DNA of 64,000 nucleotides from Clostridiaceae bacterium (GTDB lineage: Bacteria > Bacillota > Clostridia > DUPQ01). Below are positions 5,964 through 24,600 of this stretch, piece after piece; within the stretch, counting starts at the first letter, position 1, and each line of letters opens with the position of its first letter. The stretch is taken from the NCBI GenBank assembly GCA_012838235.1, contig DUPQ01000071.1, positions 33,653 through 97,652 of the forward strand, written 5' to 3'. The notes beneath the pieces are model-generated. The model was not told the DNA's origin. It made no database searches and worked only from the letters and a program-made list of their open reading frames with translations. The position numbers were made by a program, and so were the translations under genes.

Positions 5964-6961
5964 GCAACCTCATTGTTATAAACACCTCATTCAATCCGTG
6001 GTATAACCTTGCACTGGAAGAGTATCTTTTAGATAAAGTAACCGATTACGATAACATATTGTTTCTCTGGCAGAATGCCAATACGGTAGTAATAGGCAGA
6101 AATCAGAATGCCTGGAGAGAATGCCGCACTGAACTGTTGGAATCGGAAGGCGGAAAACTGGCAAGACGGTCTACGGGAGGGGGAGCGGTTTATCACGATT
6201 CGGGTAATCTGAATTTCTCTTTTATACTTCCCAGAAGCAGTCAGGATTTTCTTATACAAGCAGGTATAATAACTAAAGCGGTCGGTAAATTCGGTATAAA
6301 TGCATATGTCAACGGAAGAAATGACATAGTTACGGATCAAGGCAAATTCTCCGGAAATGCTTTTACATACAGAAAAAACAGAGCCTTGCATCACGGAACG
6401 GTGCTTGTGGATGTAGACCGGGAGAAATTGGGCAGATACCTGCAGGTCAGCAAAGAAAAAATGCAGATAAAAGGCATTAAAAGTGTGCAAAGCAGGATTG
6501 TCAATCTCAAAGAATATGACAGCGGCATAACGGTAGAGCGGGTACGTGACGCGATAATGCAGGCTTTTGTTGAGGAGTTCGGCCAATGCGAGATAGCGGA
6601 CTGCTCAAAAGAGATAGATATATTTGACCGCAAATTCGACATGGCGGAAGTGCACAGAACATATGAAATATATTCCTCCTGGGAGTTCAGATACGGTGAA
6701 GCACCCAAGTTTGATATAGAGTGGGCAAACAGATTTTCCTGGGGAGAGGTGGTCATCCATCTTACATTAAAAAACGGTGTTATAATTAAAAGCAGGATAT
6801 ATTCCGATGCTTTGGACGAACTGTTCATAGCTAATATACGTCAATGTTTCGACAATGTACCTTTTAAGAAAAAAGATATGGCAGAAGCCGTGGTGAAACA
6901 ACATCCCGACTCACCGATGGCAAAAGATATTGCGGAATATATTCTAAGTAAGGAGATGTAA
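5960..6961 (+). CDS. Lipoate-protein ligase A family protein
   Basis: BPL/LPL catalytic-domain motifs RRSTGGGAVYHDSGNLNFSFI and a lysine-containing segment. C-terminal LplA-type accessory domain present. Confidence 0.8.
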   Translation: MSNLIVINTSFNPWYNLALEEYLLDKVTDYDNILFLWQNANTVVIGRNQNAWRECRTELLESEGGKLARRSTGGGAVYHDSGNLNFSFILPRSSQDFLIQAGIITKAVGKFGINAYVNGRNDIVTDQGKFSGNAFTYRKNRALHHGTVLVDVDREKLGRYLQVSKEKMQIKGIKSVQSRIVNLKEYDSGITVERVRDAIMQAFVEEFGQCEIADCSKEIDIFDRKFDMAEVHRTYEIYSSWEFRYGEAPKFDIEWANRFSWGEVVIHLTLKNGVIIKSRIYSDALDELFIANIRQCFDNVPFKKKDMAEAVVKQHPDSPMAKDIAEYILSKEM

Positions 6962-7353
6962 TGTTTTTTAAGGATTTGCATATTAAAGATATTGCCGATA
7001 TACCGGTTTTAAGTCTGGCTTACATAGGCGATGCCGTATACGATCTTTATGTTAGGGAGCATCTTTTGGCAAAAGGATGCTTCAAACCTACCGATTTGCA
7101 TAAAATGGCGGTCGTCTATGTAAATGCAAAAGGTCAGAAACAGAGCCTTATGAAGATAATGGATATTTTGACGGAAAAAGAATTAAACTGTGTGCAAAGA
7201 GGCCGAAATGCCAAACCCAGGAGCAAACCTAAGAATGCCGATGCCGCAGACTATTCCTACGCTACCGCTCTGGAGGCTCTTGTGGGATACCTTTATATCA
7301 ACAAAGAATACGAAAGGCTTGATTACCTGTTGGGTATCATGTTGGATATATGA
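6961..7353 (+). CDS. mrnC: Mini-ribonuclease III
   Basis: LAYIGDAVYDLYVREHLL RNase III-like signature in a ~130-aa protein. Conserved mrnC-rlmB-yacP-sigH synteny. Confidence 0.8.
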   Translation: MFFKDLHIKDIADIPVLSLAYIGDAVYDLYVREHLLAKGCFKPTDLHKMAVVYVNAKGQKQSLMKIMDILTEKELNCVQRGRNAKPRSKPKNADAADYSYATALEALVGYLYINKEYERLDYLLGIMLDI

Positions 7354-8090
7354 TGGAAGAAAAAAACACCGTTATAGCGGGAAGAAATCCCGTATTGGAA
7401 GCCTTAAAGAAGGATTGTCTCATAAGCCGGATACTGGTAAGTGTCGGTGAAAAAGAGGGGTCTATACTGAAAATACTTTCCGAAGCGAGAAAGAAGAATA
7501 TTCCGGTAAAGCAGGTATCCAATACCAAGCTTGACTCTATTATTCCGGCTCATCAGGGTGTTGTGGCATATATATCCCCGATAGAGTTTTATGAAATATC
7601 CGATCTTCTGGATGTGGCAAAAGAAAGAAAAGAGCCTCCCTTTATAGTAATACTGGATCAGATTGAGGATGTGCATAATCTGGGAGCAATTGCCAGAAGT
7701 GCCGAAGCTGCGGGATGTCACGGTATTATAATCCCCCTTCACAGGTCGGCTCCCGTAAATGCCGCCGCAATGAAAGCCAGTGCAGGTGCCCTGTTGCATA
7801 TAAAGGTGGCCAGAGTGACCAATCTCAATGCGGCCATAGAGCAGCTGAAGAAGCAAGGTTTATGGATATGCGGAACGGATAAGGATGCAAATAAGCAATA
7901 TTACGACGCCGACCTTAAAGGACCGCTTGCCGTAGTTATAGGTTCCGAAGGAGCCGGTATGTCCAGGTTAGTAGCAAAGAACTGCGATTTTACCGTAAAT
8001 ATACCTTTATCGGGAAATATAACCAGCCTGAATGCATCATGTGCAGCGGCAATAGTAATATTTGAAGCCGTAAAGCAAAGAAAAGCGTAA
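7350..8090 (+). CDS. rlmB: 23S rRNA (Gm2251) 2'-O-methyltransferase, SpoU/TrmH family
   Basis: SpoU substrate-binding N-terminal domain plus C-terminal SPOUT motifs (HNLGAIARSAEAAG, VIGSEGAGMS, LNASCAAAIVIFE). Confidence 0.85.
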   Translation: MMEEKNTVIAGRNPVLEALKKDCLISRILVSVGEKEGSILKILSEARKKNIPVKQVSNTKLDSIIPAHQGVVAYISPIEFYEISDLLDVAKERKEPPFIVILDQIEDVHNLGAIARSAEAAGCHGIIIPLHRSAPVNAAAMKASAGALLHIKVARVTNLNAAIEQLKKQGLWICGTDKDANKQYYDADLKGPLAVVIGSEGAGMSRLVAKNCDFTVNIPLSGNITSLNASCAAAIVIFEAVKQRKA

Positions 8091-8095
8091 AACCG

Positions 8096-8599
8096 ATGGA
8101 ATACCTGTTTGTTGACGGTTACAATATAATAAACGCATGGTCGGACATATTTGACAAAAACAGCCCCCTTGAGGACAACAGGAAGGCATTGTGCGATATA
8201 TTGTCCGATTATCAGGGGTATACGGGTTTTCGGATTGTAGTGGTTTTTGATGCGCATCTTGTACCGGAAGGAATAGGCTCACTTATGCAGTATGATAAAA
8301 TAAAGGTGGTGTTTACAAAGAAAAATCAGACTGCGGACAATTTCATTGAAAGATATGTGGCAAAAGAGTGTTACAACAATAAAATAACGGTTGTCACCAA
8401 CGACTATATGGAACAAAAGACTGTGTTGCACAAAGGTGCACTCAGAATGACGGCATCGGAATTACAAAGAGAGATAATAAAGAAAAGACAAAGCGCATCG
8501 ACAAGCGATAAACAATCCAACTTTATAATAGACAATCTGGATAATGAACAGAAAAGGAAACTGTTAAAGATAAAGCATGAAGACCGAAAAGATAAATAG
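8096..8599 (+). CDS. yacP: NYN-domain ribonuclease YacP/Rae1
   Basis: MEYLFVDGYNIINAW N-terminus (NYN/PIN-like). Located between rlmB and sigH as in Bacillus. Confidence 0.8.
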   Translation: MEYLFVDGYNIINAWSDIFDKNSPLEDNRKALCDILSDYQGYTGFRIVVVFDAHLVPEGIGSLMQYDKIKVVFTKKNQTADNFIERYVAKECYNNKITVVTNDYMEQKTVLHKGALRMTASELQREIIKKRQSASTSDKQSNFIIDNLDNEQKRKLLKIKHEDRKDK

Positions 8600-9164
8600 C
8601 ATTATAAAAAAAGCCAAAGCGGGCGATGAAGTTTCCATGGAATATCTTTTAAAGGAGTATTCGTCCCTTGTGCGTAAAAAAGCGACCGGTCTTTTTCTGA
8701 TGGGAGCGGACAAGGACGATCTTTTACAGGAGGGAATGATAGGTCTTTTCAAAGCCATACTGAACTACGATGAAACAAAAGAAGCTTCCTTTGATACATT
8801 TGCGGCACTGTGCATAAACAGACAGATGTTTTCCGCAATAAAAGGAGCAAACAGAAAGAAACATAAACTTATCAACGAATACATTTCCATATACACGGAG
8901 GATAAAGAAGATATACCTTTAGCCATACCGGATGAGAAGTATAATCCCGAGGTAATAGTTACCGAAACCGAAGCATTACACAATCTTGAAAACATGATAC
9001 GTAATAAATTGAGCAGTATGGAAAGTAAAGTTTTAGATATGCTTATTGAAGGTCATAGTGTTGCCTATATGAGTAAAAAAACAGGTAAAAATGCAAAATC
9101 CGTGGACAATGCCATACAACGTATCAAAAGCAAAGTGCGTAACATTTTGAAAGAAGAGCATTGA
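8577..9164 (+). CDS. sigH: RNA polymerase sigma factor SigH (sigma-70 family, region 2 + region 4)
   Basis: DDLLQEGMIGLFKAILNYDETKEASFDTFAALCINRQM closely matches SigH region 2. C-terminal HTH present. Its start overlaps the yacP 3' end. Confidence 0.8.
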   Translation: MKTEKINSIIKKAKAGDEVSMEYLLKEYSSLVRKKATGLFLMGADKDDLLQEGMIGLFKAILNYDETKEASFDTFAALCINRQMFSAIKGANRKKHKLINEYISIYTEDKEDIPLAIPDEKYNPEVIVTETEALHNLENMIRNKLSSMESKVLDMLIEGHSVAYMSKKTGKNAKSVDNAIQRIKSKVRNILKEEH

Positions 9165-9197
9165 AGTATCGGTTTTATATGTTATAATAGCCTAGTC

Positions 9198-9270
9198 GCT
9201 GACATAGCTCAGTCGGTAGAGCACCTCATTGGTAATGAGGAGGTCGGCAGTTCGATTCTGCTTGTCAGCT
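9198..9270 (+). tRNA. tRNA-Thr (anticodon GGU)
   Basis: Cloverleaf is readable: acceptor GCTGACA/TGTCAGC, D-arm AGCTCAGTCGGTAGAGC, anticodon stem CCTCA/TGAGG with loop TTGGTAA, and T-arm GGCAGTTCGATTCTGCT. A genome-encoded CCA follows at 9271-9273. Confidence 0.85.
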
Positions 9271-9280
9271 CCATAAGAAG

Positions 9281-9310: not shown

Positions 9311-9479
9311 ACCTGTCTGTGTTGATAGTAACACTTTTTATAATTCAACTGACAAAGCCGGAATCTGAAAACTTGATATCGAAAAAATCGACATCAAATA
9401 GGGGCGAACGATAGACATGTTCAAGTAACATTTTGCGTCTTGAACAGAGGAATAAGAAAGCAGGCACTTTACCTTATAC

Positions 9480-9502
9480 GACGGAAATTTACCGAATACG
9501 AC
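9480..9502 (+). promoter_or_regulatory. Conserved 23-nt box GACGGAAATTTACCGAATACGAC upstream of the LytTR regulator gene (copy 1 of 3)
   Basis: Near-identical blocks at 10616-10638 and 18518-18540. It contains an imperfect 13-bp palindrome CGG-N7-CCG and overlaps imperfect direct repeats ATACGACGGAAAT/ATACGACGGGAAT spaced 20 nt apart. Ends 72 nt upstream of the start codon. Confidence 0.5.
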
Positions 9503-9573
9503 GGGAATATTGCATATAAAAAGATATACATTTATAATGAAAACAGCCATGAAAGGAAAGGGGCAATAGGTTT

Positions 9574-10038
9574 GTGAGTGTAAAATTTCGCTTTATTCAT
9601 GACGATGCACTGGGTAATGATATAGAAATTACCGTACGTGCCGCGGAAAAAAATGAACGAGTGGAAAAGCTGTTATCAAAACTTGCGGAGAGTTCCGGCC
9701 AACTTATATCCGGTCAGATTCTTTCGGAAAAGTACGATATAGACACTTCCGATATCATTTTGGTTATGCGAGACGGTCGTTATGTTACTGCGAAAACAGT
9801 CAGAGGAGACTATATTATAAAAGATGCACTGACACGCGTGGAAGAAAGCCTCAACCCCACATGGTTCGTAAGAATATCGCAGTCGGAGATAATAAACCTT
9901 AAGTATCTTAAGAACTGGGATTTCGTTGGCGGAGGAATAATTCAGATAAAGATGGAGAATGGAATAATAACTCACTCATCGAGGCGATATGCTACACAAA
10001 TTCGCGATATGCTTCTTAAGAGGAGGGCAAAACGATGA
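9574..10038 (+). CDS. Standalone LytTR-domain DNA-binding regulator (no receiver domain)
   Basis: 154 aa. The C-terminal LytTR domain (RDGRYVTAKTVRGDYIIKDALTRVEESLNPTWFVRISQSEIINLKYL) aligns with the AgrA/LytR DNA-binding fold. Its stop overlaps the next gene (ATGA). Confidence 0.8.
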   Translation: MSVKFRFIHDDALGNDIEITVRAAEKNERVEKLLSKLAESSGQLISGQILSEKYDIDTSDIILVMRDGRYVTAKTVRGDYIIKDALTRVEESLNPTWFVRISQSEIINLKYLKNWDFVGGGIIQIKMENGIITHSSRRYATQIRDMLLKRRAKR

Positions 10039-10517
10039 AAAAACGTTTGATTATCAGATCTCTTATCGGACTTGTTGTCGGCGCACTGGCAGTACATGCA
10101 ATTACTCTGTTTGTTAATTACATCAGCAGAGGTGAAATTTTAATCTGTATGCCGGAACTTATAGAAAAGCTCGGACTTACCAAAGCCATAATTGTTCAGA
10201 CCGTACTCGGTGCGCTGATCAGCATGATAGCCATCGGCGGAACGGTTCTGTTTGACATAGAAACATGGAGTTTACTGCGTGCCACTGTGGCGCACTGTGC
10301 ACTTATACTGTTTTCATATTTGACGGTAGGATTATTGTTGAGTTGGTTTTCTTTCCACATAATTCCTATCCTCATAATGACGGGCGGAATAATAATTGTC
10401 TATGCATTGATATGGCTCATAATGTACGCTATCTGGAAAGCGGAAATACGAAACATGAACCGCCTTACGGAAGAGTACAAAAAAGATATAGAAGCAAGCG
10501 AAGATCAATCCTCATAA
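10035..10517 (+). CDS. DUF3021-like polytopic membrane protein, putative membrane-bound partner/inhibitor of the LytTR regulator
   Basis: 160 aa with four predicted TM helices. Translationally coupled to the LytTR gene. Same architecture as the HdrRM/BrsRM LytTR regulatory systems. Confidence 0.7.
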   Translation: MKKRLIIRSLIGLVVGALAVHAITLFVNYISRGEILICMPELIEKLGLTKAIIVQTVLGALISMIAIGGTVLFDIETWSLLRATVAHCALILFSYLTVGLLLSWFSFHIIPILIMTGGIIIVYALIWLIMYAIWKAEIRNMNRLTEEYKKDIEASEDQSS

Positions 10518-10615
10518 AAAGTAAAGCATATAACAAAAGGTCGGCCGGAAGGGTCGATTTTTTTGAGCAAATTTTCAGTGAAACTACACTTTATCACTGT
10601 TTTTTAACCGTTTAT

Positions 10616-10638
10616 GACGGGAAATTACCGAATACGAC
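10616..10638 (+). promoter_or_regulatory. Conserved 23-nt box GACGGGAAATTACCGAATACGAC upstream of giant SLH gene A (copy 2 of 3)
   Basis: 22/23 identical to copy 1. Embedded in a ~55-nt module (10596-10652) shared with the gene B promoter and flanked by the 9-nt direct repeat AACCGTT(T/G)A. Ends 98 nt upstream of ATG 10736. Confidence 0.5.
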
Positions 10639-10735
10639 CAAACCGTTGAATGTAGAAAAAACAACCGATATACTCGAGTCAGATCTCAACGATTTTTTAA
10701 TTGATTTAATATTTGTCGGTACGAGGAGGAAGAAA

Positions 10736-13700
10736 ATGAAAAACATTGGAAGAAGATTTTTTGCATTACTGATGACATTGGTAATGTTACTTACCATGAT
10801 ACCCGCAACGGTAACTGCCAATCCGGGTGAGCCGGAAGTTTTTATTGTAGCGGGAAGAATAACCGATAGTGTTACAAAGAAAGGCTTAAGCGGAGCAACG
10901 GTAAGATTGGGAGAATTCTTTGATACTACCGATGCTTTCGGGTATTATCAGATAGATGCCCGTGAGGCGGGAACGTATGAAATATCCGCATCACTTAGAG
11001 GCTATACTACGGTTACGGATAACAATTTTGAGTTAAACGGCACAAAAGACTGGTTTGCCGAACTGACACTTGATTCAGACCCCTGCATAGATATATATGC
11101 ATCGGTCAAGTGTGTTTATTCCGGTATTCCGCTAAAAGGAGTAGAGGTTCGGGCAAGACACAGTAGCGAGGGACTATTTTACGATAATACCGACAGTGAC
11201 GGAAGTGTCGTATTCTACAATTTACCTAAGGGAAAATATACTTTTGAGGTAAACGTAAACGGTAAGCCGGGATGGGAAAGCTATATATCAGGTGAATATG
11301 ACGTAACACAGGACCACTTACTAAACTGTTCTTTAAAGCCTAAATATAAAAGCCTTACGGTGGAAACCTACGGCTTTTGTGCTTTTACCGAACAGGATGA
11401 CAGTCCTTTACGTAATGTCTATGTAAGACTTCACGGCCTGGATCCTAATGATCACGATGTGGAGCTCATATCTCCCGCACCGATAAAAACGGGAGAAGAC
11501 GGAACGGTGGTATTTGATAAACTTGTACCTATTGATTGGTTAATAGAAGTATATTCACCGGGATATGATCCCATGGAAAAGTTAGTAAAAGCCAAAGCTG
11601 ACGGAACATTTGAACAGGACACGGTTCGAATGGATATGGAATTTCATCCCGGAACATTGATTGCAAAGCTTGATTCGCTATATGATGATGACGAAAGATA
11701 TTGCGGTCTGGAAGTACATCTTTGCGGTAATGATGCCATAACGGAAGGTTTGACACGTACCATCACTGTCGAATCATGGCATAGGCCTAAAAGGGCTGCT
11801 ATTTTTGAAAACCTTTTACCGGGGCAATACAAGATTTATACTTACGGAAGTTGCGAGAACATTGTGCGAATAAATGCGGGAGACCTACAGGTTTATTTTA
11901 ATCGACTTGTGGATTCGTCGATTTCGCCTCCAAGAAGGCTTTCCATAACTTTCCAGGGTGAGACACAGGCTGTTGCCAAGATGGGTCGAGAAACAGAGGT
12001 GGAATTACCTTTGGATGTTGAAAAGGCAAATTATTCGGGTTTCCTGCATAAAATAGATATGGATGAGGAAGGTGCTCTTATAACTTCGCCTGCCGCCAAT
12101 ACCGTAATGACATTGCATCCTTCGGAATATTTTCCTCAGAATCCCGAATACGGTAAAACCTATACCGTGACAACCGATGAGTTCGGTTTCTATTCTTTCA
12201 ATGTTTACCCCGGATTATATGGTGTGACCGTTTCCGATATGGACGATTACTGGGGAGCTTTTGCAACCTATCGTCAGCGCTACGGAATGGTTGAACAAAG
12301 TGAAGAAGGCGGAGAACTGGGTAAACCTGGAAAAATGGGCGGATGGCCATATTATCAGAAATGGCAAGGCAGCCACGATTCGGCCATAGCTTACATGGGG
12401 TATGGTAAATTAGACGGTGGTAAAAAATACACAAACAATACAGGATATGCTGACATAGGCGGGGTGCCGCTCTCCTCCGGAATTACCGAGGGAGACCTGT
12501 TTATGAAAGAAAAAGTCTGCTCTATAAGTGTGGAGACTTTACCTGCTAGAATAGAAAAAGGGTGGTATGCTGTTACCGGTAAGATAAATGATGGGAATCC
12601 TGACAATCATGAAGCTGCCAATTATGAGTTTTCAAAAACATGGTTCGATCTTGCCAACTTCAGAACGGAGCTGTCCTGCGGCGAGGAAACAATTGATAAC
12701 GATACATCTCCTTTTCCTCACAAATTTACTCAACTCCAACCGGGAACTCATGATGTCAATTTCACTAAAAAAGCCGGTGCAACAATGCCGGAGTACAGCT
12801 TGCACCGCAAAGGAGTATCCGTACAGGAATATCATCAAAACTGGGAAGGAACCGATGTCACATTTTATGATTTTCCTGCACCCGGTATACTTCCTGCAGA
12901 ATTTCCCTCTGATTACTGCAGCACATACGATACTGTCTGGCCTTGCGGGGAAATGGATATTGATATTGATGTACGCGCTGAAGAGCTGACTCGTTGGACG
13001 GCTCCGAGAGACCACCTTGAAGAACATGTTTATTATTTTGTAGAACTGGATAAGAATACAGGTGAGGGCGAATATAGATGCTATAAAGACTCTGACTACT
13101 ACGAATTAAATAGGCATTTTTACGGATGGACTTCGGATATAATTCCCAATAAACTGTTTTCCGCAGAGGATGTGCATTGGTATGGTACTATTTCCTATCC
13201 GAATTATGTACCGATCACCCTATATTTCCACTTACTTGCCGGCTACGAATATAAGTGGGATGGTAGTAGGGAGTTTTGGGAATTTATACCCAGTAGATGG
13301 TTTGAGATGACATATGATCCGAGTACAGGAGAGGGAGGTCCTACAATATATATTGGCGGTCCTAAGAATAATGTACGTGAGGGTTTAGGTAATGCTCCGA
13401 ACATTTTAAGTCCTTTCAAGGCAATAATAAAGGCTAAAAACTACTATACAGGAGAAGAAATAACGGGTATATCTTTTGTTAATGACACAGCCGGACAGGT
13501 CTTTTTTTCCGAAAACGAATATGATAATCAAATCTATTTAAAGGAAACATTTTCAAATGATGACATAAATGTGGGTGACAAAAACCTTATGTTCCATCAA
13601 GCCTCCTTTGAGCCAGATTTTAGAGGAGACAATCGTACAGTCACCCTTACTTTATACATGGTGCCGAATATAGGGCTGGATTTAACTGTAAAAGACAATA

Positions 13701-16700
13701 ACGATAATCCGGTGCGGGGTGCTACGGTTCAGTTGAGGAGCGCTAAAGGTTTGGATGAGCTTCTGAGAACAGATGATTTAAATGGCGTGGTCAACGTAAA
13801 AAATCTCAGAGACGAATGTTATACCTTAATTATAGATGCTGCGGGTTGTAACACATATACTTATGAGTTGACAGCCGATATGTTACAACCTGACGGGTAT
13901 GGCTGGATGGTCTTTATACACGAAGCAATATTAACACCGATAACAAGACCGGAAGTTTCCAATGAAAGCTTTGACCGTTTCGGAGGTTTTTTACCCAATG
14001 TCAGTCGTATGAAAGCACAAGACACATATGAGCTTGTTACGGGAGATACACCTGCAGGCGAAGCTCTTACACTGACTGTGGAAGCCGCTTTGAAACAACA
14101 GAAACAAGGTGATGTTTTCGATAAGGTTGTGGGCGTATACATTGTAGATGCCAAGAAATTTGAGACTGATGATAAATCCCGTGAAGGGGAGTATGCCGAG
14201 ATAACGGAATTACCCGACCCGGGATGTCCGGTTGCTATGAGAGAATGGCTTAGAAATCTTAATAACCGTTCAACCGGTCTGGAAAATGTATTCTTCCAAT
14301 ACTTTGATGCGGAAAGCATTACTCAAAGAGATGACGATTCCGGCATGGCCGACTTTAAAGGCGAGATAATGTTATACAATCTTCCTGCAGGTCCCTTCAA
14401 ACCGGTATTCATAGTTGTAACGGAAAAAGGTGCCTATGATGTTTATGCACCGGAAATCGATGAAGATAAGCAACTTGTAGGCTTAAGAAAGAGCGGATTT
14501 CTTTCCTTTTTCATAGCTGCAGCAGATATGTATGCGGTAGCACAAACCGGACCTGCCGTACCGCTACACTTCATACTTCCTTTACTGGAAATTACACCTG
14601 CTCTTAGCGAAGCGGGAGAGATGTTGGAATTCGATGCTTCAATAGATATAGATGACTACAACCAGGGATATATTAAATATGAATACAGTATAGGTGTTAA
14701 CTGCGATGCGGGAACATCCACTCCCGGAGGAGCTCCGGGTTCGGCATCATCTTATCTGCCGGCCAAGTTGTCATTGGAAGTGGGAGGCTCGATAAGCACA
14801 TCGGTATCGGGTAAAGATTTAACTATTGAAGATAAATTTACCGCTAAAACCGGAGCATCGGCCGATACCGATAAATACCTGCCTGCATTCATAAAAGACT
14901 TAGCTACTATGGAAGTAAAAGCTACTGCACAAGCCTTCTCCACAGCCGCTATAGAATACAAAAACGATGCCGAGATTAAGTCCCATGAAAACAGCATAGG
15001 TATTACCGGAGAATTGGAAACCAAGACCAATGTCAGCGGAGTGGAAGCTGCCGGCAAATTCTTAGCCGGGGGCGTATTGGCACCCGTATTCAAGGTAATT
15101 AAAAAATGGGGTATTGATATAGGCGGTTGTATAGATGCAAATGCAGGTATAGGGGCAACCGTCAAATACGGCTTGGATGCATATACCGACGGCGGAAACT
15201 TAAATTCAATAGAAGCTGATATAGACTTCGGTGTAGCGGCCAAGTTAGGAATTTACGGCAATGTTTGCGGAGGTAAGTATGGCGGTGCCAGAGGAACCTT
15301 AGGTTTCGGCGGCAGCCATTCCAACTTTAGCAGTTCCATGATGACACTTACATTAAAGTTCGTCTATGATGCCAAAGAGAATGAATTCCGTATGGAACCT
15401 GCGGAACTTATCGGTATGTGTGAAGGTGATTTTGAAGCCTTCTTAAAGACACCCGTTAAAGACTTTAATATTAAATGGCATTTCTCTGTATTTGATGTTA
15501 ACATGCAGTTCGGTACGGAAACCAAGTTTACGCTTACACCGATAGGTAAAGTATATAGGGAGATAGACCGTGAAACCTTCGGAACATCCACCTTCATGGC
15601 TGATGAAGCATCAGGCATAATGGTAAAAGACTATCTCAGTCTTGCAACTTATGCCACAGATGAAAACAGCGGAAACATCCTCTACACCGACCTTGCAAGC
15701 CAAGGCGGAGATATGAGATTGCAACTCAGCAGTTACAGTGCGGGCACCTGGAAGCAACCGATAACGATACTTACAACCGACGGAACATTAGGCAGTTATG
15801 ATTTATTGACATTACCTAACGGTAAGATATTGATAACATACAACTTAATATCTAAAGGACATATGAACAGTATGTTCCCCGATTCCGAAACCAAATATAC
15901 ATTGGGAAGCATAGGTGCAAACGGATGGGTAGAAGAAGCCTCAGGAACAATAGAACAATTAACAGGTTCTTATGCTTTCAGCTGTGATTTAGCAGGATCT
16001 TACTTAGTCTGCCGTTTAACAGGCGGTACAGGAGCGGAAGGCTTCAAGATAGTAGGTTACAAATGGAACGGAGCAGGCTTCGGTGCTGCACAAACATTGG
16101 GATATGCCGCTACTTATGACATGAGCGTTGCGGCAACCGATAACGAACTGGTAGTTACCTGCATTGACGAATGGAAGGAACTGCAGGCAATCAGCTGGAC
16201 AGGTGATGTAACAAACACAACGATAGCAGAGGATGTAGGCTTAGTTTTAGCCATGACATCTGATGCAGACGGATACTACCTTGTTTACGAAAATGGCGGA
16301 GCAGTGGACTTCTACACAAGAGGTATTAATCCCGGCTCTGCATGGACAAAGAAGGGTACACCCGTTTCCAATGTAAGTGCAATTGAAATGGACCTTGCAG
16401 TTAACGATGACAAACTGGTATTAAGCTTCATAAAGCCTTCGGAAGCACACTTTGATGACAATAACAAACTGGTAGTAGGAAACGAAGGTATTGCAAGCGT
16501 TACACTTAGCAAAGACGGAACGCTGTATGATGAACAGAGGACATATTTGGAAAACAGTCAGTTCTACAGAAATCTTAGTATTGTATGTGTCAACGGATTG
16601 GCTTATGCATTTGCCGAAGATTTGTATGAAGATACGGCGGATTTGGTATTTGTAAAGATTTACGATACCGATGCACCCGTAAACTTCTTCGGTACAGTTA

Positions 16701-18421
16701 CCATAACGGGAACCGAAAGATTCAATGAGCGACTTACGGCAGCTGTAAGTGAAGATAACAGTGTTAGCAAGAACTTTACTTACACATGGAAACGTGAAGG
16801 AGAAGCAATAGCGACAGGTGCCACATATACAACGGTAGCTGCCGACATAGGAAAGACACTTGTCTGCGAAGTTACAACGGATGACCATCAGGGTGTGATA
16901 AGAAAGGAAACAGGTGTAATAGCCAAAGCGGCAGGACCTGCGGCACCCGCAGGACTTGCAGGTGTGGCACCTACCGTTGCCGGAGGTAATGACGGTAAGA
17001 TTACAGGAACAAATCAAACAATGGAATTCAGCCAAACGGCAACAGGAGTATATACTGCTTGTAGGGGAGCCGAGATAACAGGACTTACTGCGGGAACATA
17101 CTATGTCAGAATTGCAGGAAACAATACCACAGAGGCGGGAGCATATCGTACTGTTACGGTAGGAGCCGGAGCACAACAACCGGATGATCCTCCGATTCCC
17201 GATGACCCGGTCATTCCTGACGACCCTGTTATTCCGGATGCCGGAACGGGACAGGATACATCAAAGACCATTCCCTCAACCGACGGTGATACCCAGGTGG
17301 ATTACACTGAAACCAAGGGTACGGTATCACTGGATATATCAACTGACAAGGCTGAAGAGATTATCAACAAGAGCAAAGACGGAGATGTAGGATTTGACCT
17401 TTCCGGTGTTAAAGATGCCAAGTCTGCTGAAATGTCTAAAGAGGCATTGGAAACATTCGGCAAAGCCGATGTATCGGTAACTGTTAAGTTGCCCGAAGGA
17501 TCGGTAACTATGGATAAAGAAGCCGTAGATTCCATTGCGGAACAGGCAGGAGGAGATACGGTAAGTGTGGAACTTGCACTGGTAAAACCGGAAGAACTTA
17601 ACTATCTGCAGGAACAGTCGGTAGGAGCGGATGATCTGATTATCGATGCCAATATTACCGGCGGAGACGGTAAGAAGATAAGTACCTTCAACGGTGAACT
17701 GATAATGCGTATACCTTACAACGGTCCTCTGCCTGTAGCTGTCTGGTACTTAAATGATGCGGGAGAGCTGGAAAAGATAGATTGTGATTACGAAAACGGT
17801 ATAGTTACATTCCGTCTCAACCACCTTTCGGTATACATATTAGGACAGGATGTAAGCAGAGAAAGAGATTGGACCAATCCGTTTACCGATGTTAACAAAA
17901 ATGCCTGGTACTACAGTGCAATAGAATACATCAATAAGAATAAACTGATGTACGGTGTAGGAGATAATCAATTTGATCCTCACGGACATATGGTAAGAGC
18001 AATGATAGTAACGGTATTACATCGCTTGGAGAAGATGCCCGAACCTAAAGCATACAACACATTCGGTGATGTTGCAACAAACAGATACTACAGCAAAGCT
18101 GTCAACTGGGCTGCGGAGAACGGTATAGTAAGCGGTTACGGTGACGGAAACTTCGGGCCCAACGATCCCGTTACAAGAGAGCAGCTGGCAGTAATCTTTA
18201 TGAACTATGCCAAGTACAAAGGCTATGACACATCCAAGAGAGCCGCACTGGAAACATTTGCAGATGCAAAGAGTATATCCGGCTGGGCAACGGATGCCAT
18301 GGCATGGGCCAATGCCGAAGCTCTTATCTTAGGTGACGGCACAGGCTTGAATCCTTCAGGAAAAGGAGAGCGCTGTCATGCAGCGGCAATATTCCAGAGG
18401 TTTATTGCCAACATAAAGTAA
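10736..18421 (+). CDS. Giant (2561-aa) secreted cell-surface protein: signal peptide, several carboxypeptidase-regulatory/Cna-B-like beta-sandwich domains, low-complexity G/A/S/T-rich region, Ig-like domain, Pro/Asp-rich linker, three C-terminal SLH domains (paralog A)
   Basis: Real start is ATG 10736 with AGGAGGAAG RBS (MKNIGRRFFALLMTLVMLLTMIPATVTANPGEPEV signal peptide). The track ORF from 10265 is an upstream in-frame readthrough. C-terminal WTNPFTDV..WYY..AIEY...LMYG...F.P....MVRAMIVTVLHR and two further SLH repeats. CarbopepD_reg-like motifs occur, e.g. GRITDSVTKKGLSGATVRL...GYYQI. Confidence 0.9.
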   Translation: MKNIGRRFFALLMTLVMLLTMIPATVTANPGEPEVFIVAGRITDSVTKKGLSGATVRLGEFFDTTDAFGYYQIDAREAGTYEISASLRGYTTVTDNNFELNGTKDWFAELTLDSDPCIDIYASVKCVYSGIPLKGVEVRARHSSEGLFYDNTDSDGSVVFYNLPKGKYTFEVNVNGKPGWESYISGEYDVTQDHLLNCSLKPKYKSLTVETYGFCAFTEQDDSPLRNVYVRLHGLDPNDHDVELISPAPIKTGEDGTVVFDKLVPIDWLIEVYSPGYDPMEKLVKAKADGTFEQDTVRMDMEFHPGTLIAKLDSLYDDDERYCGLEVHLCGNDAITEGLTRTITVESWHRPKRAAIFENLLPGQYKIYTYGSCENIVRINAGDLQVYFNRLVDSSISPPRRLSITFQGETQAVAKMGRETEVELPLDVEKANYSGFLHKIDMDEEGALITSPAANTVMTLHPSEYFPQNPEYGKTYTVTTDEFGFYSFNVYPGLYGVTVSDMDDYWGAFATYRQRYGMVEQSEEGGELGKPGKMGGWPYYQKWQGSHDSAIAYMGYGKLDGGKKYTNNTGYADIGGVPLSSGITEGDLFMKEKVCSISVETLPARIEKGWYAVTGKINDGNPDNHEAANYEFSKTWFDLANFRTELSCGEETIDNDTSPFPHKFTQLQPGTHDVNFTKKAGATMPEYSLHRKGVSVQEYHQNWEGTDVTFYDFPAPGILPAEFPSDYCSTYDTVWPCGEMDIDIDVRAEELTRWTAPRDHLEEHVYYFVELDKNTGEGEYRCYKDSDYYELNRHFYGWTSDIIPNKLFSAEDVHWYGTISYPNYVPITLYFHLLAGYEYKWDGSREFWEFIPSRWFEMTYDPSTGEGGPTIYIGGPKNNVREGLGNAPNILSPFKAIIKAKNYYTGEEITGISFVNDTAGQVFFSENEYDNQIYLKETFSNDDINVGDKNLMFHQASFEPDFRGDNRTVTLTLYMVPNIGLDLTVKDNNDNPVRGATVQLRSAKGLDELLRTDDLNGVVNVKNLRDECYTLIIDAAGCNTYTYELTADMLQPDGYGWMVFIHEAILTPITRPEVSNESFDRFGGFLPNVSRMKAQDTYELVTGDTPAGEALTLTVEAALKQQKQGDVFDKVVGVYIVDAKKFETDDKSREGEYAEITELPDPGCPVAMREWLRNLNNRSTGLENVFFQYFDAESITQRDDDSGMADFKGEIMLYNLPAGPFKPVFIVVTEKGAYDVYAPEIDEDKQLVGLRKSGFLSFFIAAADMYAVAQTGPAVPLHFILPLLEITPALSEAGEMLEFDASIDIDDYNQGYIKYEYSIGVNCDAGTSTPGGAPGSASSYLPAKLSLEVGGSISTSVSGKDLTIEDKFTAKTGASADTDKYLPAFIKDLATMEVKATAQAFSTAAIEYKNDAEIKSHENSIGITGELETKTNVSGVEAAGKFLAGGVLAPVFKVIKKWGIDIGGCIDANAGIGATVKYGLDAYTDGGNLNSIEADIDFGVAAKLGIYGNVCGGKYGGARGTLGFGGSHSNFSSSMMTLTLKFVYDAKENEFRMEPAELIGMCEGDFEAFLKTPVKDFNIKWHFSVFDVNMQFGTETKFTLTPIGKVYREIDRETFGTSTFMADEASGIMVKDYLSLATYATDENSGNILYTDLASQGGDMRLQLSSYSAGTWKQPITILTTDGTLGSYDLLTLPNGKILITYNLISKGHMNSMFPDSETKYTLGSIGANGWVEEASGTIEQLTGSYAFSCDLAGSYLVCRLTGGTGAEGFKIVGYKWNGAGFGAAQTLGYAATYDMSVAATDNELVVTCIDEWKELQAISWTGDVTNTTIAEDVGLVLAMTSDADGYYLVYENGGAVDFYTRGINPGSAWTKKGTPVSNVSAIEMDLAVNDDKLVLSFIKPSEAHFDDNNKLVVGNEGIASVTLSKDGTLYDEQRTYLENSQFYRNLSIVCVNGLAYAFAEDLYEDTADLVFVKIYDTDAPVNFFGTVTITGTERFNERLTAAVSEDNSVSKNFTYTWKREGEAIATGATYTTVAADIGKTLVCEVTTDDHQGVIRKETGVIAKAAGPAAPAGLAGVAPTVAGGNDGKITGTNQTMEFSQTATGVYTACRGAEITGLTAGTYYVRIAGNNTTEAGAYRTVTVGAGAQQPDDPPIPDDPVIPDDPVIPDAGTGQDTSKTIPSTDGDTQVDYTETKGTVSLDISTDKAEEIINKSKDGDVGFDLSGVKDAKSAEMSKEALETFGKADVSVTVKLPEGSVTMDKEAVDSIAEQAGGDTVSVELALVKPEELNYLQEQSVGADDLIIDANITGGDGKKISTFNGELIMRIPYNGPLPVAVWYLNDAGELEKIDCDYENGIVTFRLNHLSVYILGQDVSRERDWTNPFTDVNKNAWYYSAIEYINKNKLMYGVGDNQFDPHGHMVRAMIVTVLHRLEKMPEPKAYNTFGDVATNRYYSKAVNWAAENGIVSGYGDGNFGPNDPVTREQLAVIFMNYAKYKGYDTSKRAALETFADAKSISGWATDAMAWANAEALILGDGTGLNPSGKGERCHAAAIFQRFIANIK

Positions 18422-18454
18422 GAGGTAATATTCTAAATAATCTTCCTCAACAAC

Positions 18455-18491
18455 AAAGGTACCATGCCGCCGCCAAAGGTGTGGTACCTTT
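18455..18491 (+). terminator. Terminator-like hairpin downstream of giant gene A: 10-bp perfect stem AAAGGTACCA/TGGTACCTTT with a 17-nt GC-rich loop
   Basis: Perfect 10-bp inverted repeat followed by a weak U-tract (GCTTTGTG). Conserved with one G-U-compatible change after gene B (26342-26378). Confidence 0.45.
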
Positions 18492-18517
18492 GCTTTGTGC
18501 ATTTTTTAACCGTTTAT

Positions 18518-18540
18518 GACGGGAAATAACCGAATGCGAC
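18518..18540 (+). promoter_or_regulatory. Conserved 23-nt box GACGGGAAATAACCGAATGCGAC upstream of giant SLH gene B (copy 3 of 3)
   Basis: Matches copy 2 at 21/23 and copy 1 at 20/23, inside the shared ~55-nt module TTTTTTAACCGTTTATGACGGG...CCAAACCGTTGAATG. Ends 86 nt upstream of ATG 18626. Confidence 0.5.
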
Positions 18541-18625
18541 CAAACCGTTGAATGAAAAAAAATGAGTGGATATAATCGGGTCAGACTTATTCATTGAGCA
18601 AATTTTTTGTATCTGGAGGAAGAAA

Positions 18626-21600
18626 ATGAAACACATGGCAAGAAGATTTTTTGCACTACTGATGACATTGGTAATGTTACTTACCATGATACCCGCAACG
18701 GTAACTGCTAATCCGGGTGAGCCGGAAGTTTTTGTTGTAGCGGGAAGAATAACCGATAGTGTTACAAAGAAAGGCTTAAGCGGAGCGACGGTAAGATTAT
18801 CAAATGCGGAGAAGGAATATACCGATACTACCGATGCTTTCGGGTATTATCAGATAGATGCCCGTGAAGCGGGAACTTATGAAATATCCGCTTCGCTTAG
18901 AGGCTATACTACGGAAATGAAAAACGATTTTGTGCTGGACGGCACAAAAGACTGGTTTGCCGAACTGATACCTGACGGAAATCCCTGCATAGATATTTAT
19001 GCCAATATCAAGTGCGTATATTCAGGCATAGCCCTGTCCGATGTGACGGTTAAGGCCATACACAGCTCTGAAGGCCCCTTTATCGGACAGACCGATGAGC
19101 ATGGAGCCTTGGTTTTTGAGAACCTACCTGAAGGAACATACACCTTTACGGTAAATGAAACCGGTCAACCGGGATGGGAAAGCTATATATCAGGTGAGTA
19201 TACAGTAATGCAGGACCAGTTGCTAAACTGTTCTTTAAAGCCTAATTACGAAAGCCTGACCGTTAAGACCAACGGTTTTGACGCTTTCTCCGAAACAGCC
19301 AACAGTCCTATCAGGAATGTTACGGTTAGACTTTACGGAGTGGACCCGAAAGATAACGATGTGGTACTGATTAAACTTCCACCGCAGACTACAGGCGAAA
19401 ACGGAACGGTGACATTTGAAAACCTTGTGCCGATAGACTGGAGAATTGAAGCATATTCTCCCGGTTATGACTCCATACCGGATATTTATTCCGATGATAT
19501 TATAGTTAAAGCTACAGAAGACGGCACTCTTGAGTTGGATAGCGTTACTTTGGATATGGTTTTTCATCCTGCAACCTTGATAGCCAATCTCAAATCTGTC
19601 TATGATGACGACGAAATATATACAGGCCTTGAGGTCAATCTTTGCGGTATAAACGGTACCGCAACCGAAGGCTTAACACGCACCGTTATCTTATTCGAGG
19701 GCGAGACGTTTGCGGAATTTACAAATCTTTTGCCGGGGCAGTACGATATTTCCACCTATGGAAGTTCCATGCGTAATATACCCGTATTGGTACAAGGTAG
19801 AAATATTTATGCAGATCCGAGTTTGGATCCTATGCAGGACGGGTATGGTGCGCCTGAAAGAATATTTTCGGTGAATTTCCAAGGGGAAATTCTCGGTTTG
19901 GCAAAACCGGATATGATACTTGAAGTGGATTTAGATTTAGAAATAGAGATGGCAAATTTCTCGGGTTATCTATATAAAACCGATATGGATAACTTCGGAA
20001 CTCTCAAGACGACACCTGCGGGCAATGTAACAATGACGCTTGTTCCGTCCGAATACTATCCTCAGAGTCCCGAATATGGTAAGACTTATACGGTAACCAC
20101 CGATGAGTTCGGTCACTATTCATTCAATGTGCATCCCGGTCTTTACGGCGTGACGGTTAGCGGAATGGATAAATATTGGGGTGCGTATATTGAATATCGC
20201 GATCGCTATACATTAACTCCGCAAATGGCAGATTGTCCAACGAGCGGCTGGCCATATTATCAAATATGGCAAGGCAGCTACGATTCTGCTCTGGCATATA
20301 TGGGTGCGGGCTGGATTTGCATGTTCACCAGAACAGGATATGCCGATCTTGGCGGTATGCCTCTTTCCTCGGGAATTACCGAGGGAGATTTGTTCATGAA
20401 TGAAAAAGTTTGTTCAGTTGAGCTGTCTGTTGACTACCAGGATAAAGATAATCCTTGGAGTCACACTATGACTATTAAAATAGATAATGAAAACAATCCT
20501 CCGGATGCTGAAGCAGTTCGCGATGCAGTATTCAACACGGCCAGCTTCGGGGCAACATATACATGCGGCGAAACCGTCATAAATGGCGATAACGATCCGC
20601 TGCCTCATATATTTGTCCGTTTGGAGCCTGGGACTTATCCTGTCAATATAACTAAGTATAAATCCGGGCCGAAATGTTACTTTGAACGCAACGAATGGAC
20701 TTTTGAAGGAGAAATAATAACTAAAACCTGGCATGGTTCGAATGTCGTGTTCTATGATTTTCCCGCACCGGGGATATTACCGGAGAATTTTCCCGTTGAA
20801 TATATGACCGAGCTCGATAAAGTCTGGCCTACGGGTAATGACAGAATAGGTCTCGGCCTTATAGGAAATGAAGCGACACCTTATGAGGCAGACTTAAATC
20901 GATATTTTTACTATTGGGTAGAGGGAAATCCGGAAGAGGGTATTCCGGGTGAGTATGAAAGCTTGGAGCAAATTCATTCCGGTGATCTTACATATACTAT
21001 ACGTGATTGGGGGTTTAGAATATACGGATGGAGTTCCGATATAATCCCTAATAAAATGTTTAACTTCTACAATGGTTTTACTCAGGAACGTTATGTCCAG
21101 ATGCTTTTGCCGGATGTGCCCGTTACATTATATATTACCAGGGATCCTTATGAAACGGGCGAAGGCTATGAGCCCAGAGCATGGTTTGAGATGAATTATA
21201 ACCCCTCTACAGGAGTGGCAAGCCCTGCTCTCTATATAGATGGGCCTACTCCGAATCTGCGCAAGGGAGCCGATGCATATCCGGCTATATTGAGTCCCTA
21301 TACATTTATATTAAAAGCCAAGCATGTATATACAGGAAAGGAAATAGACGGTATCTCTATCTTGGACGAAAACACAGGAAACACTTATGTGTCGGGACAA
21401 ACTTATAACAATGTAATAAAATTGCCGACTTACAGAAATATTGATTTTGGAGGCAGAAATCTGCGCTTCGACTACATTACTTTTATACGAGATCCCGGTA
21501 GCAGAACCGAAACATATATACTTAATGTGATTCCGAATACTGCATTGGATTTGACGGTTAGGGATGAAAGCGGTGTTGCGATTCCGAATGCCACGGTCGT

Positions 21601-24600
21601 TTTGAGGAGTCCCAACAACTTCAATGAAAATCTGAAAACAGAGGCGAATGGCACTTTGGATATAGGATATCTGAAAGATGAAAACTATACTTTGGTTATA
21701 GATGCTCCCGGCTATTGCACATACACTCATGAGTTAAAGGCCGAAACGTTGGTAAAAGTCGGAAAATGGAATACCTTCATACACGAAGCGATCTTAGTTC
21801 CTTTGGAGCGACCTGAAATCAGCGACGAAAGCTTTGATCGTTTCGGAGGCTTCCTGCCCCATGCAGGCCGTGTAACAAGCGGTGATAATTATGAACTGGT
21901 GTGCATATTAAGTCGTGAAGAAAATGCCGCAAAGGATGCTCTGACACTGACAGTCGAGGCGGCGTTGAAACAGCAGAAATATGATGAGGTTGCAGACAAA
22001 GTCATCGGCATGTATATAATTGATGGCAAGAAGTTTGAAGTAGATGACAAGTCCAGAGAGGGTGACTATACAGAAATAGATGCTGCAACACTTCCCGATC
22101 CTACATCTCCGAAAGCGGTAAAAGAATGGCTGGACAAGCTTAGAAATCGCTCCGCAGGGCTGGAAAATGTATTTTTCAGGTATTTCGATGCTGAGTGCAT
22201 AACCCAAAGAGACGACAACTCAGACATGGCAGACTTCTCGGGCGAGATAATGATATATGACCTGCCCGCAGGTCCGTTTAAACCGATATTTATAGCGGTA
22301 ACCGAAAAAGGCGCCTACAATATTTATACACCTATCATTGCTGAAGATAAGCAGCTTGTAGGTCTGAAAAAAGACGGTTTCCTTACTTTCTTCCATAATG
22401 TTACAGAGATGTATCTGGAAAAAAGACCGTTTGTACTTCCGGTATTTATAGTTCCGTTCTTTGAGTTCTGTCCTGCACTTGACGAAGCGACCAATTTACC
22501 GGAATTTACCGCCGAGATAAGCGAGGATGAAGACAACCCCGGCTATCTTGTATATGAATACAGTCTGGCTGTAACCGCGGATGCAGGAATGGCAAATCCG
22601 GGCGGTTCGGCGGGTTCTCCCACATCCTATCTGCCCGACCAATTGGGTATAGAATTCGGCGGCACATTCAGTGCGAGCGTATCGGGTAAGGATAAAAGTA
22701 TAAATAATTCGGTAGCACTCTCCGTGGGTGCGGAATTTGAAACAGAGAAATATCTTCCTGCGGCAATAAGCGATGTTGCCACCATGGAGGGAACTGCAAC
22801 GGGAACGGCTTCCGTTGAATCCGGAATCGAGTACGAAAGTGATGCCAAACCGAGTGCTACTTCATCGAATATCGGGCTTACCGGCGAATTAGCGACCACT
22901 ACGAATATTAGCGGGGTGGGTGTTGCAGGTAAATTGTTCGGTGGAGGTGCTTTGGGTACCGTGTTCAGAACACTTAAAAAGTGGGGAATTGATTTAGGTG
23001 TCACCATAGATGCAAATGTAGGTCTGAACGTTGGTGTCGGAATGACGGATAACCTTAAAACCCCAACAGCTCCGGATAAATTAGATTTAGATGTAGGTTT
23101 AGGTCTCGGTGCCAAGGCCGGGCTTTACGGCAGTGCTTTCAACGGAAGTGCCGGTGCCAGAGGAACCATAGGTTTCGGCGGTGAACACGAGAAATTTGAA
23201 AGCTCCATGATGACCTTTGATGTAAAGTTTGTCTATGATGTTGAAAAGGGAGAATTCCGGGCCGACCCGGCAACGCTGAAAGGCGTATGTGAAGCCGAAT
23301 TCGAAGCATTTATTGATACAGCCTTTTTTGCCGCAAGAAAAAGCTGGAATTTCGAGGCGTTTTCAGTAGATATGCAGTTCGGAACGGAAACAAAGTTTAC
23401 GCTTACCCCTGTAGGCGTGAAGAACCACGAGATAAATCGTGATACCTTCGGAACGTCCGAATTCTTGGCAGATGAAACTTCCGGCATAATGGTAAAGGAT
23501 TATCTGGCCCTTGCAACTTATGCCACAGACGAAAACAGCGGTAACATCCTCTATACCGACCTTGTAAGCCAAGGCGGAGATATGAGGTTACAGCTCAGTA
23601 AATTTAACGGCACCACATGGCAACAGCCCGTAACGGTAATTTCAACCGACGGTGCAATAGGCAGTTGCGATTTAATAACTCTGTCCGATAACAGAATATT
23701 GATAACATATAGTTTAATTGCAAAAGAAGATAAGTATAGTTTGTTCCCCAACTCGGAAATTCGCTATACAGTCGGAACTGTAGGAGCAAACGGTTGGGAA
23801 GAGTCAGCTTCCGGCAGTGTAGCACAATTGTCCAAATCTTATGCTTTTAAATCTTACCTGACAGGAAGCACAAATCCTCGCTTGGTATGTGCTCTTACAG
23901 GAGGAACGGGAGCGACAGGCTTTGATATTGCAGGGTACAAATGGAACGGCTCAGGTTTTGATTCTGCAGTGATGCTAAAGAAAAATGTTAAAGCTTTCGG
24001 TATAAATGTTGCAGGCAATGACAACGAAGCCGTAGTTGCTTATGTTGAAGCAACCGGTAAACTGCTCGCTCTTAGCTGGTCAGGTGTAAATACGGTAAAC
24101 GATAATGTCGTTGCTGCCGAAACAGGTTCAACATCGGCTGTTGCAGTTGATGCAAACGGTTTTTACATAGGCTGTACATCAAAGGGCAGCATTGACTTCT
24201 ACACAAGAGGTATTAGTCCCGGCTCTGCATGGACAAAGAAAGGTACCCCCGTTTCCAATGTAAGTGCAATTGAAATGGACCTTGCGGTTAACGGTGACAA
24301 ACTTGTTTTAAGTTTCATAAAGCCTTCCGAAGCATACTTTGATGCCGATAACAAACTGGTAGTAGGAAACGAAGGTATTGCAAGTGTTACACTCGCTAAG
24401 GATGGGACTCTGTATGATGAACAGAGGACATATTTGGAAAACAGTCAGTTCTATAGAAATCTGAGTATAGTATGTGTCAACGGATTGGCTTATGCATTTG
24501 CCGAAGATTTGTATGAAGATACGGCGGACTTGGTATTTGTTAAGATTTACGATGCCGATGCACCCGTAAACTTCTTCGGTACAGTTACCATAACGGGAAA

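Follow-up and report, generated by a model that had tools for sequence, protein, structure and literature searches.

The window analysed here, a 64-kb stretch of DNA (64,000 nucleotides (nt) of the forward strand of contig DUPQ01000071.1, assembly GCA_012838235.1), comes from an uncultured member of the Clostridia whose species is represented in GTDB by 'Bacillota bacterium UR.bin177'. It carries a LytTR regulatory system (LRS), consisting of a gene for a LytTR-only transcription regulator and an overlapping gene for a membrane protein of the DUF3021 family, followed by two giant genes for proteins with S-layer homology (SLH) domains. We consider it likely that this LRS, with its DUF3021 partner, activates its own operon and the two giant SLH genes, through an operator that occupies the same position in all three promoters. 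The locus adds a well-supported example to a known class, and the type of output predicted for it is new; the mechanism would not surprise a specialist and leaves the current understanding of LRSs unchanged. Coordinates are those of the window and features lie on the plus strand unless stated otherwise; loci on contigs outside the window that were used for comparison are labelled L001 to L060.

The regulator gene (9574-10038, GTG start) encodes 154 amino acids. The initial annotation had described its product as a LytTR-only protein and Pfam agrees, the sole match being LytTR (PF04397; residues 54-147, E 3.3e-17), with no Response_reg or other receiver or signalling domain found. This protein is the proposed repeat-binding activator. 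All except one of its homologues (n=68), which carry the taxon labels Saccharofermentanales, Christensenellales or Ruminococcaceae, are about 150-190 amino acids long and contain PF04397, and a sequence search of the PDB with the regulator gave only a weak match, to 9tic 'ORF67' (E 0.0014). Directly downstream, a gene of 160 codons (10035-10517) encodes a protein with four hydrophobic segments that Pfam assigns to DUF3021 (PF11457, E 6e-23), the family first proposed for it, and that we regard as the putative membrane-bound inhibitor and sensor. Its start overlaps the LytTR stop codon in an ATGA, as expected from the coupling of regulator and four-segment membrane protein that had been noticed earlier. 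An intrinsic-terminator-like hairpin and T-run (10535-10565; RNA fold of 10518-10572, -14.7 kcal/mol, z -4.1) comes only after the DUF3021 gene, which places the two genes in one operon, and across the loci compared they co-occur strictly and are coupled. The parts of the DUF3021 protein best conserved among orthologues are two loops, CMPxLTE and FDIExWSLLRA, together with the final helix and its tail, YALIWLIMY..WK.EIR.MNRL.EEYKK. A topology drawn up with the positive-inside rule would put the first loop outside, as a candidate sensor, and the second loop and the C-terminal helix and tail in the cytoplasm, as candidate docking surfaces.

The operator unit is a pair of 12-nt direct repeats with the consensus ACCGAATRCGAC, the starts of which are 20 bp apart. 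Alignment of the three upstream regions and direct reading of the sequence gave one layout for all three sites, namely repeat 1, 8 nt, repeat 2, 7 nt, TTGnnn, 17 nt and TAnAnT. At the LRS operon the operator (9471-9502) is made up of repeat 1, ACCTTATACGAC (9471-9482), an 8-nt spacer and repeat 2, ACCGAATACGAC (9491-9502). The -35 box begins 7 nt past repeat 2, a geometry shared by orthologues, and the core promoter as read from the sequence (9510-9538) is TTGCAT (9510-9515), 17 nt and TATAAT (9533-9538). A simple promoter scan did not list this promoter, because TTGCAT agrees with TTGACA at only three of six positions. Upstream of giant gene A (operator and promoter, 10607-10674), repeat 1 ACCGTTTATGAC (10607-10618) and repeat 2 ACCGAATACGAC (10627-10638) are again separated by 8 nt, and 7 nt further on stands a core promoter (10646-10674) that the scan does list, TTGAAT (10646-10651), 17 nt and TATACT (10669-10674). 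The arrangement upstream of giant gene B (18509-18576) is the same, with repeat 1 ACCGTTTATGAC (18509-18520), 8 nt, repeat 2 ACCGAATGCGAC (18529-18540), 7 nt, and a core promoter (18548-18576) of TTGAAT (18548-18553), 17 nt and TATAAT (18571-18576). The 20-nt-spaced direct repeats reported earlier for the first site are therefore present there, but they are a feature of all three sites and not of that one alone. From each operator to the start codon (GTG 9574, ATG 10736 and ATG 18626) the distance is 72, 98 and 86 nt, respectively, within the 70-100 nt first given. The operator of the LRS operon is found also in the same-species contigs L001-L005 and in L059, where it is interrupted by the contig end.

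The shared sequence was originally recognised as a 23-mer, GACGGRAAATTACCGAATACGAC. With up to three mismatches this has exactly three matches in the window (9480-9502, 10616-10638 and 18518-18540, all on the plus strand) and none in any of 100 dinucleotide-preserving shuffles, so the claim that its recurrence exceeds chance expectation was justified. As a functional unit, however, the 23-mer was rejected, for it takes in only the final 3 nt of repeat 1, together with the spacer and repeat 2. The imperfect palindrome CGG-N7-CCG that had been pointed out within it was likewise discarded: the orthologue spacer CGACGAAAAAcgACCG (GAAAAAcg) lacks it, and it is incidental, an accident of the bases at the two repeat edges. 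A position matrix built from 33 unique sites, all from other taxa, recovered the same three positions, scoring 43.2 bits at the LRS operon, 37.4 at giant gene B and 35.6 at giant gene A; the next position in the window scored -16.8 bits and the best of 30 shuffles -6.7, and by this measure the 64-kb window holds no further weak operators. One half-site-like match at 52508 (minus strand) is single and without a partner. A scan of GTDB genomes with the 23-mer, four positions being left free, gave five matches, of which four are single matches in unrelated taxa and the only related one is L005, from the same species. This pattern held the spacer bases fixed and for that reason could not define a regulon. 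It does speak to the idea that the 23-mer is a dispersed repeat unrelated to promoters, which we reject given these five matches and the exactly three sites in the window, all of them in promoters.

The fit to known LRSs is close. In the account of Zou et al. (2018, PMC6193735), an LRS comprises a LytTR-only regulator and a downstream membrane inhibitor, which in Streptococcus mutans belongs to DUF3021 or DUF2154; the recognised repeats are a 9-bp direct pair reading ACCnnTTAn, 12 bp apart (sometimes 11 or 13) and 4-11 (mostly 10) bp upstream of the -35 box. Counted as 9-mers, the three sites in the window read 9 bp, 11 bp, 9 bp and then 10 bp to the -35 box, which for the LRS operon (9471-9538) gives ACCTTATAC, 11 bp, ACCGAATAC, 10 bp, TTGCAT, 17 bp and TATAAT. 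The soluble LytTR regulator without a receiver, the small membrane protein directly downstream in the same operon, and the repeat pair just upstream of the operon's -35 box all uphold the LRS assignment proposed at the outset. The S. mutans systems of the DUF3021 type, as far as that account describes them, resemble the present one in having a soluble LytTR regulator with a short N-terminal region, a polytopic DUF3021 protein immediately downstream in the same operon, and an ACC-starting repeat pair about 10 bp upstream of the -35 box, with further copies upstream of targets. They differ in the repeat itself (ACCnCTTAn there, ACCGAATAC here), in the usual spacer (12 bp there; 11 bp here, with a 20-bp period) and in their targets, which are bacteriocin and competence genes in S. 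mutans, giant SLH proteins by prediction here, and by prediction lipoproteins, LPXTG proteins and a GGDEF gene in relatives of our host. The hosts differ as well, ours belonging to an uncultured Clostridia lineage of anaerobic digesters.

The likeness to HdrRM and BrsRM that the initial annotation drew holds in so far as the locus conforms to the LRS definition. HdrRM works by the logic proposed here: its membrane protein inhibits a LytTR activator, and the operon activates itself by way of repeats that lie 8 bp ahead of the -35 box; electrophoretic mobility shift and reporter assays in the same account (PMC6193735) showed that HdrR binds these repeats and autoactivates the hdrRM operon. HdrM, however, is a DUF2154 and not a DUF3021 protein, which makes the S. 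mutans LRSs with DUF3021 partners the closer analogues; the BrsRM type is described there as the most widespread (PMC6193735). Further two-gene pairs of a LytTR regulator with an inhibitor or partner, proposed to be LRSs or LRS-like in the sources that describe them, are BrpR/BrpS of Staphylococcus aureus, the mutants of which tie the pair to biofilm and cell-envelope phenotypes, and DanRI of uropathogenic Escherichia coli. DanRI departs from the present system in that DanI is a 69-amino-acid zinc-ribbon protein (DUF2116) and autoregulation is apparently lacking, and it has been linked to neutrophil evasion. The system described here combines a clear operator with a regulon that is local and compact. 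A two-component system of the AgrA or ComE type was considered and rejected. AgrA, ComE and LytR also have a LytTR domain, there recognising tandem direct repeats next to the -35 box, but they combine it with an N-terminal receiver and a cognate histidine kinase. Our regulator has no receiver, and no kinase gene adjoins it, its neighbours being a SigH-like sigma factor gene, a tRNA-Thr gene, the DUF3021 gene and the giant genes. A literature search found no paper combining 'LytTR' and 'S-layer homology'.

Comparison with relatives proved informative. We compared loci from other uncultured Clostridia whose LytTR regulators are 62-81% identical to ours, and scanned them for repeat pairs. A DUF3021 gene lies immediately downstream of the regulator in all of them, and none has a giant SLH gene. 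Several contain cleaner copies of the operator, such as ACCGAATGCGAC-8-ACCGAATACGAC-7-TTGCAT-17-TATAAT in L010. The operator precedes the LRS operon in L010, L013, L017 and L019, and is found also upstream of neighbouring genes: a GGDEF gene in L010, a lipoprotein gene in L012, L015 and L017, and in L017 genes for a 710-amino-acid LPXTG protein and a 237-amino-acid protein. All repeat-pair matches at these loci are on the sense strand of the downstream gene.

A metagenome collection was also scanned with the repeat pair alone (CCGAATRCGAC-N9-CCGAATRCGAC). The 38 loci found comprise 27 of promoter type and 11 that are microsatellites or other tandem repeats. Among the scorable promoter-type matches TTG stands exactly 7 nt past repeat 2 in 34 of 35, the remaining one being at a contig end, and a LytTR and/or DUF3021 homologue is present on the retrieved stretch at 21 of the 27 promoter-type loci and at none of the 11 tandem-repeat loci. 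The first downstream open reading frames of the promoter-type loci fall into three clusters, the sizes of which include reference proteins: LytTR regulators (11), lipoproteins of about 190-208 amino acids without a Pfam match (15), and signal-peptide proteins of 240-1,228 amino acids, most with an LPxTG-like sorting signal (10). The (CGACCGAATA)n-type microsatellites or other tandem repeats (L022, L026, L031, L040, L046, L050, L052, L054 and L057; also L042 and L043) are accidental matches in unrelated organisms and represent a class of false positives for operator searches of this kind.

In the mechanism that we propose, the 154-amino-acid LytTR protein would bind the direct-repeat pair, which spans roughly -73 to -42 of a sigma-70-type promoter whose -35 box is weak, and would thereby activate transcription at the three promoters in the window, those of giant genes A and B and, as positive feedback, that of the LytTR-DUF3021 operon. 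The DUF3021 protein, being co-translated, would keep the regulator inactive at the membrane as long as the system is in its basal state. An envelope or extracellular cue would lift this inhibition, upon which the operon would amplify itself and both giant SLH genes would be switched on, their expression being locked in by positive feedback. We infer both the binding by LytTR and the sign of the regulation from the geometry of the operator and its conservation. Autoactivation of the operon is likewise suggested by this geometry together with the operators conserved upstream of the L010, L013 and L019 operons, and the inhibitory role of DUF3021 would follow by analogy with HdrM and BrsM and from the co-occurrence and coupling of the two genes.

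An opposite sign is the first alternative to be weighed. The LytTR protein could be a repressor or anti-activator that holds the giant genes off, as might be thought from S. aureus, where a study reports that brpR and brpS mutants have higher srtA transcripts and form more biofilm, and its authors read this as repression (PMC13509338). We consider this unlikely at the present locus. The repeats are confined to the sequence upstream of the -35 box, stop 7 nt short of it and do not overlap the core promoter, and the -35 hexamers (TTGCAT, TTGAAT, TTGTGC) are poor, as is expected of activator-dependent promoters. The same layout, moreover, activates at hdrRM by experiment, according to the published account (PMC6193735).

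Giant gene A (10736-18421) encodes 2,561 amino acids and its paralogue, giant gene B (18626-26308), 2,560. In the product of A a putative signal peptide is followed by N-terminal CarboxypepD_reg/Ig-like domains, about 2,000 amino acids without a family match and three C-terminal SLH domains; that of B also has N-terminal CarboxypepD_reg/Ig-like domains and three SLH domains at its C-terminus by Pfam. Both were accordingly taken to be SLH-anchored surface proteins, given the SLH triplets (E about 1e-26 in each) and an N-terminus, MKNIGRRFFALLMTLVMLLTMIPATVTA, that resembles a signal peptide when judged by eye. A PDB sequence search with giant A matched in the SLH region only, to the S-layer protein Sap. 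A strong terminator hairpin follows giant gene A (18450-18498; RNA fold of 18422-18505, -29.6 kcal/mol, z -4.9), and the T-run hairpins after the DUF3021 gene and after giant gene A imply that the region is transcribed as three separate units, each of which has a box of its own. The earlier proposal of one operator shared between the regulator's own promoter and those of both giants thus gains from the identical register, the separate transcription units and the scores of the foreign-site matrix.

The two giants are tandem paralogues with 65% amino-acid identity, and at the nucleotide level their similarity is a mosaic: 96% identity over the first 150 nt of coding sequence, 53-78% in the centre (about 5 kb) and 85-99% over the last 2 kb. 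The near-identical 5' and 3' ends show that the ends have been homogenised, which makes sites 2 and 3 two copies of a single promoter. All three sites originally claimed are therefore present in promoters, but the second and third are duplicates and not independent, and the real comparison is between site 1 and the giant promoter. This brings into view another explanation, that the shared box is a relic of the duplication or recombination of a promoter cassette of about 70 nt and answers to no common regulator. Besides the duplicated A and B promoters, it can draw on chimeric promoters that differ between strains (L001, L002) and on the likeness of target promoters across taxa outside the repeats, for example in the spacer TCGAGCC and in CGRGTCA past the -10 box. 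We nevertheless judge it slightly less probable even than repression. The repeats and the hexamer positions are all that site 1 has in common with the giant promoters, the flanks and spacers being unrelated, and between the A and B promoters identity is concentrated in the repeats, the -35 and the -10, whereas the 17-nt spacer and the leader have diverged. A relic would also not be expected to keep the exact register between repeats and TTG seen in the foreign matches, nor to be found beside LRS genes as often as it was in the metagenome scan.

The mosaic suggests that the ends have undergone gene conversion while the exposed centre diversified, as in variable adhesins. Within the same or very close species the number of giant genes varies, with two in L001, L003 and L004 and one in L002 (11152-18819) and L059 (1243-8928); in the two single-giant strains the LRS is still located upstream of the giant gene and the operator is present. 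The B promoter of L001 has an A-type spacer, and in L002 an A-type box is joined to a B-type leader. Taken together, this copy-number variation and the chimeric promoters point to probable recombination between tandem copies. In L004 (GCA_050951265.1) the DUF3021 gene is called truncated, at 102 amino acids (10462-10770), and giant gene A is called split into 62 and 2,353 amino acids (11166-18852). These breaks could be real frameshifts, which would make this a natural inhibitor-null strain, or indel errors of assembly.

It is least probable, indeed very improbable, that the repeats are read by another DNA-binding protein encoded elsewhere, with the adjacency of LytTR coincidental or indirect: six of the 27 operator-defined loci have no LRS gene on the retrieved stretch and the host DNA examined is the 64-kb window, but at five of these six the sequence stops within about 1 kb on the upstream side or about 0.3 kb on the downstream side of the match, or the whole locus spans barely 1-2 kb, L035 corresponds to part of the LRS-bearing L017, the typical LytTR site as published consists of tandem direct repeats with a 20-21-bp period that adjoin the -35 box (PMC6193735), and the association persists down to 62% regulator identity with the operator little changed.

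Activation by the LRS of its own operon and of the giant genes remains the reading we prefer, and several observations weigh against it. Repeat 1 is degenerate at all three sites in the window, with 2-3 mismatches of 12. The 5' ends of A and B bear the marks of gene conversion, so that this genome effectively offers only two independent sites. Autoregulation is not universal in the clade, since the LRS promoter of L015 has no recognisable repeats and the LRS of L012 has no promoter of its own. Full-length giant homologues occur only in close relatives of the same genus, which puts the pairing of LRS and giant genes beyond a deep-phylogeny comparison; a distant, partial homologue in L060 (Lachnospiraceae) has no LRS nearby. 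The regulon may also exceed the sites described, as the scan with the tolerant motif matrix covered the 64-kb window.

A wider meaning of the operator can be put forward tentatively, as a real possibility on which we would not yet insist: the DUF3021-type LRS clade of digester and gut Clostridia could be a dedicated switch for cell-surface remodelling, in which a single operator, ACCGAATRCGAC twice with a 20-bp period, serves a modular and fast-evolving local regulon. Its members would be giant SLH proteins with hypervariable centres, LPXTG proteins, the lipoprotein of about 200 amino acids and a GGDEF cyclase, and LRR-dockerin proteins may belong to it through read-through from the L019 LRS operon. 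The presence of the operator upstream of other surface proteins and of a cyclic di-GMP (c-di-GMP) synthase suggests that this branch of the LRSs governs cell-surface display. If this is true, it would be the first case outside the streptococci in which both the operator and the output of an LRS are defined, and adhesion and c-di-GMP would be tied to LRS signalling. Thousands of genomes are predicted to contain LRS operons, and experimental work covers few of them, those of S. mutans in depth and BrpRS and DanRI in part. The present locus, with a sharply defined operator, three sites in 64 kb and two giant wall-anchored proteins as its predicted output, makes a clean test case, and with the operator motif regulons can be read directly from the metagenomes of uncultivable organisms.

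The lipoprotein of about 190-208 amino acids is the commonest operator-driven gene in relatives, whereas the window lacks it. The protein combines a lipobox with a Pro/Glu-rich linker and, at its C-terminus, a conserved domain (GWAPDKSFCTTDIVYKQ...YSNGRWDV), and no match was found for it in Pfam; its genes are at 11126-11707 in L012, 11348-11950 in L015 and 11261-11827 in L017, and at 12 metagenome loci. GGDEF genes adjoin the LRS in L010 (11162-12847), L013 (10916-12679), L012 (14239-15321) and, divergently, L015 (8486-9688); the gene in L013 overlaps the DUF3021 gene and that in L010 has its own operator. These recurrent diguanylate cyclase neighbours suggest a link between the LRS clade and c-di-GMP signalling. 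In L019, the orthologue with 62% identity, the LRS operon continues into two tandem genes with LRR_5 and dockerin domains (10947-16381) and cohesin genes are close by (5468-7344), so the output of this LRS may be cellulosome-attached proteins.

The promoters of target genes contain a second conserved element that is not present in LRS-operon promoters. In the window it lies at 10652-10683 and 18554-18585, and it consists of a TCGAGCC-like sequence in the spacer between -35 and -10 and of CGRGTCA directly past the -10 box, the latter reading CGAGTCAGA and CGGGTCAGA in the window; it is found also in L012, L017, L021, L024, L035, L036 and L048. The element could be a second binding site, a signal in the initial transcript, or the product of common descent of a promoter cassette. 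Several operator-driven genes in relatives, moreover, have leaders of 100-340 nt with conserved blocks (L017 9750-9990, L025, L021, L036, L037 and L048), for example GGATGGAATGGTAGC and GGCTCGTATACGACATCGCCGTAA, the latter of which folds into a long hairpin. The leaders of L017, L021, L025 and L036 had no match in Rfam, for the last three even at E up to 1, and the conserved leaders may be an undescribed cis-regulatory RNA. In the leaders of the window no cis-regulatory RNA was found at Rfam gathering thresholds, and at E up to 1 there were only chance-level matches. Together, the second element around the -10 and the structured leader of relatives hint at a second layer of control. In the degenerate locus L048 (reverse strand; about 8190-8330 when oriented) a promoter with a target-type operator abuts a remnant of the LytTR 3' end and the DUF3021 gene has the start codon ATA, not ATG; the LytTR gene appears to have been largely deleted.

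On the 3' side of the giants, genes for a MerR-family regulator and an ABC transporter occupy the minus strand (26622-28947). The region upstream of the LRS (6961-9273) encodes mini-RNase III, a SpoU methylase, NYN/YacP, the SigH-like sigma factor and tRNA-Thr(GGT). The orthologous LRS of L012 is located about 5 kb from an rpmG-secE-nusG-rplKAJL cluster, which in Bacillus subtilis follows sigH, and this correspondence hints that the placement of the LRS after a conserved housekeeping block marks an old insertion site.

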